64,000 nt of DNA from Euryarchaeota archaeon UBA125 (lineage in GTDB: Archaea; Thermoplasmatota; Poseidoniia; Poseidoniales; Thalassarchaeaceae), in the NCBI GenBank assembly GCA_002502625.1, contig DAPV01000035.1:6279-70278 (forward strand), given 5' to 3'. Below, in pieces: positions 32,919 through 35,297 of the stretch. Position numbers and translations under genes: made by a program. The notes under the pieces were generated by a model. That model saw nothing but the letters and a program-made list of their open reading frames with translations, had not been told where the DNA came from and made no database searches. Position 1 is the stretch's first letter, and every line of letters begins with the position of its first letter.

Positions 32919-35297
32919 GTGACTGACTGGGCGGGATATCTACAACACTTCACAGAAGAAGGGTTTAGTGAAGAGGGAATTAGAATCTTGTTGGGAGAAA
33001 ATCCAGATAGTGATTCAGTATTATTCGTTCAAGAAACGCTAGAAGATGCAAAAAAATTGATCATGATGTTAGATAGCGTTCCTAAATCACTAACCGAATC
33101 AGCAAATGGTATGAAAAGACGATTATTACAACATCCTTCTGAATTAGAAGATATTCGAGCTAGATACAATGTAATGGTTGTAGCAACAACCCCTTGGGTT
33201 GCATCGGCTGAAAAAATGAGAGAGCAGTGGTCAATGGAAGGTAGGTCAATTGAATTAGCTGCATGGCTTAGACGATTGGGGTCTATTGATCATAATCCTC
33301 CTAAAGAAACAAGAGAAGTGATCCAAGTAATCGAAAATATTGCACCTAGAGATGAAGTAAGAAGAGCAATTGAAAATTTAGAAGGTAAACAGAGAGAAAG
33401 ACGTGTAATCCTTCAAGACATGATGAATATTCTAGAACGAAAGGGGTGGAACTTAGAATTCTCTGAACATGCAAATCTTTCACAAAAGTTTGAAGAAGTT
33501 TCTGAATGGTTAGAATTGGAAGATCGAATTGAAGCATTAGAAAGAAAGATTTTCCAATTTGAGGAAAGAAGGCCAAATGAAGCTAACATGGGTTTGAAAA
33601 TTATTGAAAAAGCAAGACTCAATGGCGATAGAAATGCAATAAAACAATTAGAATTAGATGTTAATGATGAGATTCAAGATATTCTAGAAAGTGATGAAGA
33701 AATCAAAACTCGATTGAATTATTGGTCTCAAAATGGACTGATTATTACTGATTCGGAAATTCTAACAAACAATCAATTATGGAAATTCGAAGAAAACTTA
33801 GATGAATTAGAAAAACATTGGAATTTAGTTTATGAAAAATGTATTATTTTACGTAATCTTCTTGATAAATCAGGACAGAAATATCCAGATTGGATTGGAC
33901 ATGTTGATTCATATGAAAAAATTCTAACTACAATTGATGAATTAACAGATCAACAAAAACAACTGAATGATAATTTACAACTAGAAATTGAAACATGGAG
34001 AAATTACGGACTAAATTTAGAATTAATTGGTAAAATATTTGAAGGAAATAATGTATGGGAATTAGATGAACAGATTAACGGGTTACGATCATTGGCTGAA
34101 ATAGCAATTTCGATTCTCAATTCTATTGATTATTTAGATCAATCAATAGACAGCGAAAGAATCGGTGAAATTCGCGAAAGTGTAATTCGAGACTGGAATC
34201 TACATAGTACACTTCAATTTGAAATGGAAGAAATTGACAAGATTTCGCGAAGACAAGAACATCATTTAGTAATGCTATACGAACGTGCAGAAGAACTTTC
34301 TATGGACGTCACAGAATCGAATGATTGGACAATTGAAGAATTTGAAAATAGAATATTTGATGCTGAATTAATAAGAAATCGTGATGTAGAAAAAAGGGCT
34401 AAGAAGAATGAGGAATTGAATAAAAATATAGTAGAGTTGTCAAAAATTCCTACCCCTAAAGAAAAAATTGAAAATTCGTCTGACAATAAGAAAAATGATC
34501 TAAATAATTGGATCGAGAAGAAAGCGGCTGATGGGAAATTATTCTACTATAATCAAGAAACTAAACAGTCAACTTGGTCAAAACCTGATGGAATAATTCT
34601 ATCAACAAACGAACCAGTAAAAACTCCCATCAAAGAAGAGATTGAGTTAATCATTTCAGATATCAAAAATATTAGTGAAGAAAATGATGGAGAAATTATT
34701 GAAGGTGGGATTCCCAAAATTCCGGAGATAGAAACTGTTGTTCAGGAAAAAGAACCTATTCGGTTCAGACGATTGGGTGTAAATGGAATCAAGATGCCGG
34801 TTCTAGTTGAAGATGAAACCAAGATGAAAAACGATACAGAATCAGTCTCAGAGACTAATCAAAAAAAGAATCTTAATCATATTCTAAGAGAAAAATTGGG
34901 AATTAATAATGAGAATCCATTGATTGTAGAATCTTCACGAAACAGGGATCTAAGAATTCAACGTATTCTAAGACTAATTCCATTAATTGAATCAAAGTTC
35001 GATTCAGGTGATCAGCAAAAAATAGTTGATGACTTACTGCCCGTCCTTGAGAATATTGAACAATGGATTCGTGTAAGAAGTGAGCATCGACGATGTTGGA
35101 ATGACAATGGAGGAATTGTCCAAAAAATCGATCGCTTACAAGATGTGTTAGATGAAGTCCCTGGACCAGGAATTCAATTGCCAATTGGGTTCGATAAGAT
35201 ACCTTTGCCATCTAAAACAGAAGATCTGATTGAAGAAATTAAGGATTTTTCGATTAATGCTCTAGTCTCCACTTCTGGTGGAATTATCGCATTATAA
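32919..35297 (+). CDS. Large acidic coiled-coil protein containing a canonical WW domain
   Basis: ..[31 protein letters not shown].. has the two Trp 22 residues apart, the central GK-FYYN-T and a trailing KP. The rest is E/K-rich coiled coil. GTG start with AGGTGGA upstream. Confidence 0.6.
   Translation: [792 protein letters not shown]

Follow-up and report, generated by a model that had tools for sequence, protein, structure and literature searches.

The stretch of DNA analysed here, hereafter the window, comprises 64,000 nt of contig DAPV01000035.1 from Euryarchaeota archaeon UBA125 and contains, on the + strand, a gene for a 792-amino acid (aa) scaffold protein (open reading frame, ORF, at 32919–35297, stop codon included). 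The archaeal protein encoded by this ORF carries a genuine, canonical WW domain, a kind of protein-interaction module that textbooks assign to eukaryotes. The organism belongs to the Poseidoniales (Marine Group II), and an archaeal DnaG gene adjoins the ORF; few archaeal groups are as abundant in surface ocean waters as Marine Group II. The domain is thus an undescribed WW member, found where it was not expected and with a history of gain and replacement that is unusually easy to follow, PF00397 labels being already assigned automatically in the databases.

Identification and conservation of the WW domain

A search with the Pfam WW profile (PF00397) matched residues 530–556 of the protein with an E-value of 3.9e-8; the score of 33.6 bits exceeds the gathering threshold of 26.9, and profile positions 4–31 of 31 were covered. 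The domain, which we delimit as residues 529–558 (34503–34592, + strand), contains two tryptophans situated 22 positions apart (W531 and W553), the run F542-Y543-Y544-N545, T552 and the trailing proline P556. An initial reading of the window by a model, made without database searches (the sequence-only reading), had proposed a canonical WW domain from the tryptophan spacing, the aromatic residues and the trailing proline, and had named a sub-threshold profile score and the absence of the motif in orthologues as signs of a chance match. Neither sign appeared, since the score is above threshold and the motif is kept in every full-length orthologue. No second WW-like segment was found in a six-frame translation of the window.

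A word-indexed search retrieved at least 20 protein clusters that were 46–100% identical to the query, in Tara, ENA, JGI and NCBI assemblies independent of one another; related WW-bearing loci were found in Poseidoniales and Thalassarchaeaceae metagenome-assembled genomes (MAGs). The full-length orthologues all carry a precomputed PF00397 match, and one of them, P0021, scores 38.1 bits against this profile. In an alignment of 15 orthologues, 13 positions were invariant (W531, E533, A537, D538, G539, F542, N545, T548, K549, S551, T552, W553 and P556); the strand-2 positions 543 and 544 were always Y or F, residue 544 being Y in 13 of the sequences and F in the other two. Conservation, measured as mean pairwise identity over the same 15 sequences, was not uniform along the protein: it reached 61% in the N region (497–504 aa), 67% in the WW segment, which has a fixed length of 29 aa and no indels, and 68% in the C module (137–138 aa), with only 22% in linker 1 (26–33 aa) and 17% in linker 2 (57–98 aa). 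The WW segment is therefore a conserved island of fixed length within ca. 190 hypervariable residues, which indicates that it is a folded domain under strong purifying selection.

An artefact, be it a chance match in low-complexity sequence or the result of a eukaryotic contaminant or a chimeric assembly, was contemplated merely because the linkers flanking the domain are compositionally biased, and no positive evidence for it was found. The above-threshold score, the location of the domain in frame inside an archaeal gene, and its presence in at least 20 clusters from independent assemblies and in genomes of eight GTDB species with identical synteny leave this explanation with practically no weight, contamination or chimeric assembly being excluded. 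A neutral or decaying insertion without function is also a very improbable account of the WW domain. Across the eight WW-clade loci (L001–L008), which are collinear over ca. 14 kb, the WW protein is 48–80% identical, as opposed to 76–96% for the adjoining protein with tetratricopeptide repeats (TPR) and 86–98% for DnaG. The host protein is thus fast-evolving in comparison with its neighbours, as decay would have it, and on one 319-kb contig its gene is split into two ORFs; however, the domain is the best-conserved island of the hypervariable region, free of indels and with its signature residues all invariant.

A single gain of the WW domain in a Poseidoniales family

The protein belongs to an unnamed family, defined in this analysis, whose synteny was established from eight WW-bearing and four WW-less loci. 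When 1.84 billion representative proteins were searched exhaustively with a profile, two kinds of match emerged: proteins with many WW repeats, and ca. 35 representatives of 730–1050 aa that matched only in the N and C regions. The latter have no Pfam WW match and possess a different, conserved middle module of ca. 100 aa (E.D.W..GW.V.GL … LPW.RD … RP..L). A further search identified 70 clusters of WW-less relatives, named at NCBI as Poseidoniales, Thalassarchaeaceae or Thermoplasmatota MAG proteins. The four WW-less loci share the genomic slot of the window gene: reading along the strand of the family gene, designated X, there are a redoxin gene and a TPR gene in reverse orientation, then X in forward orientation and, farther downstream, dnaG in reverse orientation. 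Given this common slot, the WW-less relatives are positional orthologues, even if their genomes have a GC content of 46–62% versus 37–39% in the WW clade.

The WW-less orthologues (e.g., P0031, P0193, P0221 and P0024) also share with the window protein the N-terminal helical region and the Arg-rich C module with its PGPG motif; yet they are just 19–23% identical to it, and they have the middle module at the place where the window protein has linker, WW domain and linker. Several residues of the C module are invariant family-wide (D677, R679, Q681, R682, R685, W716, R720 and R724), and the window gene shows the complete family signature, namely an N-terminal WSxEGRSxEL, a C-terminal PRDxR[IV]QRLxRL … [VI]PGPG … LP and a location between the TPR gene and dnaG.

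In a neighbour-joining tree constructed with 716 alignment columns, from which the WW domain and the linkers were excluded, all 13 WW-bearing sequences fell in one clade, nested in the more diverse WW-less family and sister to P0024/25/27. The monophyly of the WW clade is safe, because identities are at least 39% inside it and at most 23% outside. Its nesting among WW-less relatives indicates that the WW domain was gained once, coinciding with the loss of the older middle module; there was, then, a single derived gain of the WW domain with replacement of that module.

The split gene mentioned above is on an ENA contig of 319,665 bp and consists of an N-terminal ORF of 508 aa (P0010) and a WW-carrying ORF of 96 aa (P0239), owing either to a frameshift or pseudogene or to an assembly error.

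Domain organization and predicted structure

Translation of the gene starts at a GTG codon, a start that is credible because the N-terminus (M/V-T-D/E-W, being MTDW in the window protein) is kept in all orthologues and a sequence AGGTGG, invariant across seven aligned genomes, is situated 5–9 nt upstream. We obtained two AlphaFold2 models, one from 15 sequences, with a mean predicted local distance difference test (pLDDT) of 65.7, and another from 51 sequences including WW-less relatives, with a mean pLDDT of 78.0; the latter is the one described here. Five segments can be distinguished, all on the + strand. The N-terminal region (residues 1–505, 32919–34433), which aligns with the WW-less relatives, is predicted as all-helical, with ca. 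20 helices at pLDDT 85–95. It is followed by linker 1 (residues 506–528, 34434–34502), predicted as disordered (pLDDT below 50 over residues 506–527) and hypervariable; by the WW domain; and by linker 2 (residues 559–652, 34593–34874), which is acidic, hypervariable and likewise presumably disordered (pLDDT below 50 over residues 561–652). The protein ends in an Arg-rich helical C module (residues 653–792, 34875–35294), common to the WW-less orthologues and modelled at pLDDT 84–91 over residues 653–786, that includes a proline/glycine motif conserved family-wide (residues 747–764, 35157–35210), which is, speculatively, an internal ligand for the WW domain.

The WW domain itself is predicted to adopt the three-stranded antiparallel beta-sheet typical of the WW fold, with strands at residues 531–535, 541–545 and 551–552 (pLDDT 80–83). 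In Foldseek comparisons, the predicted domain superimposed on the first WW domain (WW1) of FBP11 (1zr7) with a root-mean-square deviation (rmsd) of 0.8 Å over 28 residues, 64% identity and a target-normalised template modelling score of 0.83; the rmsd was 1.1 Å for PRPF40A (8pxw) and 0.6–0.9 Å for the WW domains of Nedd4, ITCH and MAGI. The Foldseek E-values were poor because the WW domain is tiny.

The sequence-only reading had described the protein as an acidic coiled-coil scaffold. Its helical nature is supported by the model, although what is predicted looks like helical bundles and does not establish a coiled coil, with ca. 20 helices of 6 to at most ca. 35 residues, separated by loops and packed together, and none of them long and continuous. 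The best Foldseek match of the helical parts in the PDB was PRC1 (spectrin-like), with a weak probability of 0.2. The protein is indeed acidic (isoelectric point, pI, of 4.77), but this is not distinctive: acidity is ordinary for the organism, as the proteins of the window have a median pI of 5.07 and 41% of them are below 5.

The extreme C-terminal tails of the family (residues 785–792 in the window protein, 35271–35294) are predicted as disordered and are conserved within each clade: proteins of the WW clade end in ...VSTSGGI[IK]AL, whereas WW-less members end in ...LPSAMxQxPExVES. If EEVD tails are taken as a model, a role of these tails as short docking motifs is conceivable, for instance towards the adjoining TPR protein.

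Type and origin of the WW domain

In a phmmer search against PDB sequences, the best match of the archaeal protein was TCERG1/CA150 (E-value 1.2e-12), followed by PRPF40A/FBP11 (1.5e-10) and yeast Prp40 (8.8e-9), in comparison with E-values of only 0.07–0.8 for the WW domains of the Nedd4 family and Pin1 (0.067 for Nedd4L and 0.13–0.46 for Pin1). Likewise, identity to WW1 of FBP11/PRPF40A is 64–67% over the whole domain, non-contact positions included, versus 21–36% to the WW domains of Nedd4, ITCH and MAGI. An extra aromatic residue at the third position of strand 2 is a mark of class II/III WW domains, class I having an aliphatic residue there. Y544 aligns with the third tyrosine of the YYY triplet of FBP11 WW1, so the third strand-2 position is aromatic in the archaeal domain. 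Judged by closest sequence similarity, the domain is of the PRPF40/FBP11/TCERG1 (class II/III) type. WW domains of the Pin1 type (class IV), which recognize phosphorylated Ser/Thr-Pro, have a loop 1 that is longer, contains Arg and makes contact with the phosphate; this type was ruled out, since loop 1 of the archaeal domain is short (AADGK/R), as in FBP11 (SPDGR). We also ruled out membership in the PRPF40 or TCERG1 whole-protein families, because the 792 residues contain no FF domain and no other Pfam match.

The nearest relatives of the archaeal WW domain in the exhaustive search were all eukaryotic. The WW units closest to the archaeal profile were those of animal TCERG1 proteins (from a hemichordate, fishes, a spider and a flatworm), of the dinoflagellate Fugacium and of the euglenid Rhabdomonas, together with units from a moth protein that has 47 of them and from a PRPF40-like gene of a small eukaryote with an adjoining ORF for FF domains. 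A WW-only profile search of an index of 5.8 billion proteins, whose word index limits sensitivity for such a short query, yielded 124 candidates and no other prokaryotic architecture; the matches comprised a fragment of a split gene of this family, a PRPF40-like gene from a eukaryote and a short contig that was left unplaced. The narrow, nested distribution of the domain in archaea and its 64–67% identity to one eukaryotic subfamily make transfer from a eukaryote the best reading, the most probable source of the domain being a eukaryote or a virus of eukaryotes.

A viral donor was also sought in a scan of viral contigs, whose only match was a fusion of a family X DNA polymerase with a WW domain, 56% identical to the archaeal domain and not an evident donor. 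This fusion is encoded at positions 3963–5135 (+ strand) of a 37.9-kb IMG/VR contig (L012, IMGVR_UViG_3300010885_078838); the polymerase has pol-beta palm, thumb and fingers domains and a C-terminal WW domain that scores 34.1 bits, and the contig is probably from a virus of a eukaryote.

Possible function and alternative explanations

The WW domain most likely works as it does in eukaryotes, because it is folded, is under purifying selection and retains the ligand-contact aromatic residues F542, Y543, Y544 and W553. By analogy with eukaryotic WW domains, we lean towards a role as a tethered proline-motif reader that would recruit a partner to the scaffold. In the ancestor of one Thalassarchaeaceae/Poseidoniales sub-clade, a cytoplasmic, all-helical, Poseidoniales-specific protein lost its middle module of ca. 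100 aa and came to carry there one PRPF40/FBP11/TCERG1-type WW domain between two disordered linkers. On these flexible tethers, the domain would act as a low-affinity reader of proline-rich peptides, bringing a partner with a proline motif to the helical scaffold. WW1 of PRPF40A binds PPLP-type motifs, weakly as a single domain (PMC11079029), and PPLP or polyproline motifs would be, by analogy, the expected ligands of the archaeal domain. We infer proline-peptide binding and the scaffold role, as well as the direction and the source of the transfer. The complete scenario, in which a clade of Marine Group II took up a eukaryotic WW domain of the PRPF40/TCERG1 type and uses it as a working proline-motif reader that replaces an ancestral interaction module, is put forward tentatively, as a possibility that falls short of being probable.

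Several results weigh against the explanation that we prefer, a tethered reader captured from a eukaryote. The neighbour-joining tree was built without bootstrap support, and a domain of 30 residues cannot yield a resolved phylogeny, so that the donor and the direction of transfer are deduced from distribution and similarity. The helical modules of the host protein had no match in Pfam, NCBIfam, PADLOC, PHROGs or PDB sequences, which bears on the function of the host family. Moreover, since single WW domains bind weakly (PMC11079029), a lone archaeal WW domain may need avidity or a second contact. Lastly, the sequence-only reading had suggested searching for PPxY or proline-rich partners, but none was found among the ORFs of at least 100 aa in the window, which contain no PPxY, PPLP, PPxPP or PPP motif; PP dipeptides occur in the window at chance frequency, with 33 observed versus 35 expected.

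The small size of the domain also bears on an alternative for its origin, namely that a WW-like unit arose independently, by convergence, in the linker of the archaeal protein. The domain has just ca. 30 residues, designed or consensus WW domains such as the 1e0m prototype also resemble natural ones, and neither a donor sequence nor flanking eukaryotic DNA was identified. Nevertheless, an identity of 64–67% to FBP11/PRPF40A WW1 that extends to non-contact positions, set against the 21–36% for Nedd4, ITCH and MAGI, and the appearance of a complete domain, without any intermediates, within a clade that branches among WW-less relatives make convergence improbable. The sequence-only reading had contrasted a eukaryote-like with an independent origin; the eukaryotic identity of the nearest relatives disfavours the latter, even though so short a domain does not resolve the matter phylogenetically.

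A different alternative concerns the ligand: the WW domain would bind the family's own proline/glycine segment (residues 747–764), either within the same molecule, as an autoinhibitory contact, or between molecules, head to tail, and would thereby fill the role of the lost middle module. The pattern [VI]PGPGxxxP..D..LP does not vary among 51 family members, and the WW clade keeps it strictly as VPGPGIQLP; the long tethers, predicted as disordered, would let the domain reach it, and the window offers no external proline-rich candidate. In addition, the closest relative, PRPF40A, is under just this kind of control by a proline-rich segment of its own, and a PPGAP element is a further contact of its WW1 (PMC11079029). 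Yet the motif is older than the WW domain, being present in WW-less members; the model places it, at pLDDT 65–71, within the folded C module instead of leaving it as a free linear stretch; its sequence differs from the canonical PPLP and PPxY sites; and in P0021, the WW-bearing member that diverges most, KLP replaces PLP. We consider this alternative unlikely on these grounds, although the domain might possibly read the invariant PGPG...PLP segment of its own scaffold to control self-assembly.

If the complete scenario is true, Archaea would have their first functional protein interaction based on a canonical WW domain, and the case would stand as a clean transfer of a domain from a eukaryote to an archaeon, with replacement of a non-homologous module. 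The family provides a natural experiment on how a eukaryotic peptide-recognition domain integrates into a prokaryotic protein, and the ligand of the WW domain would give a handle on the function of an uncharacterised, Poseidoniales-specific family. No major concept is changed, because domain transfers from eukaryotes to prokaryotes are already known and PF00397 labels are already in the databases.

Genomic setting

Upstream of the WW gene, and divergent from it, is a gene for a TPR protein of 751 aa (30494–32749, – strand) that matches Pfam TPR families and has an N-terminal membrane anchor, formed by a hydrophobic helix. The sequence-only reading had correctly recognized this large, membrane-anchored neighbour, but the spacer between both genes measures 169 nt (32750–32918), and not 168. 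We aligned this spacer with its equivalents from six other genomes (L001, L003–L006 and L008), whose X proteins are 48–80% identical. Conserved blocks were found that are invariant in the seven genomes, consisting of ACACTTAGCCRCTTCCCT near the start of the TPR gene, CCATYCTTCAAATG ca. 35–45 nt upstream of the start of X, and AGGTGG just before the GTG codon; these are probably shared promoter or ribosome-binding elements.

The TPR gene is found beside both WW-bearing and WW-less orthologues, and the divergent pair is conserved across the order even when identity among the X proteins is ca. 20%. Together with the invariant spacer blocks, this is mild evidence suggesting co-regulation of X and the TPR gene. 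Co-conservation of both genes, a check proposed by the sequence-only reading, was thus found as regards their adjacency; as the whole neighbourhood is collinear, with redoxin and DnaG likewise kept beside X, a functional link receives little support from it. The TPR neighbours of two WW-less loci, L009 (3112–5859, – strand) and L010 (3056–5860, – strand), have an extra C-terminal extension of ca. 170 aa that is absent from the WW clade. In this extension, which has no annotation, an acidic linker is combined with a small domain that is conserved (KPRGxAMDW...HGGVVNQDFKxLGLIPEDIT...) and with a tail of sequence EDFEFGFG. Co-evolution of the TPR protein with the gain of the WW domain was rejected, since the WW-less sister clade (L016) also lacks the extension, indicating that this change is unrelated to the gain.

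Downstream, the WW gene is convergent with the gene for archaeal DnaG (Toprim; 35298–36467, – strand), which matches NCBIfam NF003108 with 333.7 bits. The stop codons of both genes abut, with zero bases between position 35297, where the WW gene ends, and position 35298, where the stop codon of dnaG begins, and the same occurs in all eight WW-clade loci; in WW-less genomes, there is either a gap or an extra gene of 387 aa between X and dnaG. Past dnaG there are genes for a TerB-like protein (36659–37099, + strand; 29.5 bits) and for a protein of 216 aa with no significant family match (37104–37754, + strand), both collinear in all WW-clade loci. Other genes of the window have housekeeping functions (thermosome, PurH, PurN, redoxin and a methyltransferase), and this context indicates that the WW gene is in the core chromosome and not in an island. 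The window also contains an ORF of 1505 aa (43532–48049, – strand), probably for a large surface protein, whose sole Pfam match is a thrombospondin type 3 repeat; a TSP_3/Pel9A-like protein is also encoded close to the locus in L010 and L011. A gene for tRNA-Cys (GCA; 19838–19914, – strand) was the only RNA gene detected in the window.

Comparison with known WW systems

Among the closest eukaryotic domains is WW1 of PRPF40A/FBP11 (HYPA), along with those of yeast Prp40 (1zr7, 1ywi, 2l5f, 8pxw and 1o6w). The whole domain is matched, with 18 of 28 residues identical to PRPF40A WW1, loops of equal length, an identical TKQSTW in strand 3 and, for the predicted structure, an rmsd of 0.8–1.2 Å; the strand-2 triplet is FYY in the archaeal domain and YYY in the eukaryotic one. 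The proteins that bear them are very different, however, because PRPF40A/FBP11 has a tandem pair of WW domains, FF domains and a spliceosomal context, whereas the archaeal protein has one WW domain, none of these features and a helical architecture without a eukaryotic counterpart. TCERG1/CA150 (FBP28; 2ysi, 1e0l and 7abg) was the top whole-protein match in the PDB, and the WW units of animal TCERG1 proteins were the most similar in the library of 1.84 billion proteins; yet TCERG1, which targets RNA polymerase II and the spliceosome, combines three WW domains with FF repeats, an architecture that the archaeal protein lacks.

The sequence-only reading had deemed a WW domain in an archaeal genome a rarity. 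That the host is archaeal is shown by the adjoining archaeal DnaG and the orthologues in Poseidoniales MAGs, and a 2025 paper states that all WW domains characterised to date are from proteins of eukaryotes (PMC12331936). Automatic WW annotations in bacteria mostly fall on helical segments of GltB, and most prokaryotic matches in the databases are false (PMC12331936); our literature search brought up no publication that connects WW domains to Marine Group II or to other archaea. The nearest prokaryotic parallel is the protein O-mannosyltransferase of Mycobacterium tuberculosis, which has a non-canonical WW-like motif, the EL4 C-terminal motif, presented as the first functional prokaryotic example (PMC12331936). 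The EL4 motif is also a WW-like element that binds proline peptides in a prokaryote, although it lacks the third strand, is periplasmic and is part of a loop of an enzyme (PMC12331936). In contrast, the archaeal WW domain is fully canonical, scores above threshold, is three-stranded according to the model, is cytoplasmic, and is clearly similar to one eukaryotic subfamily.

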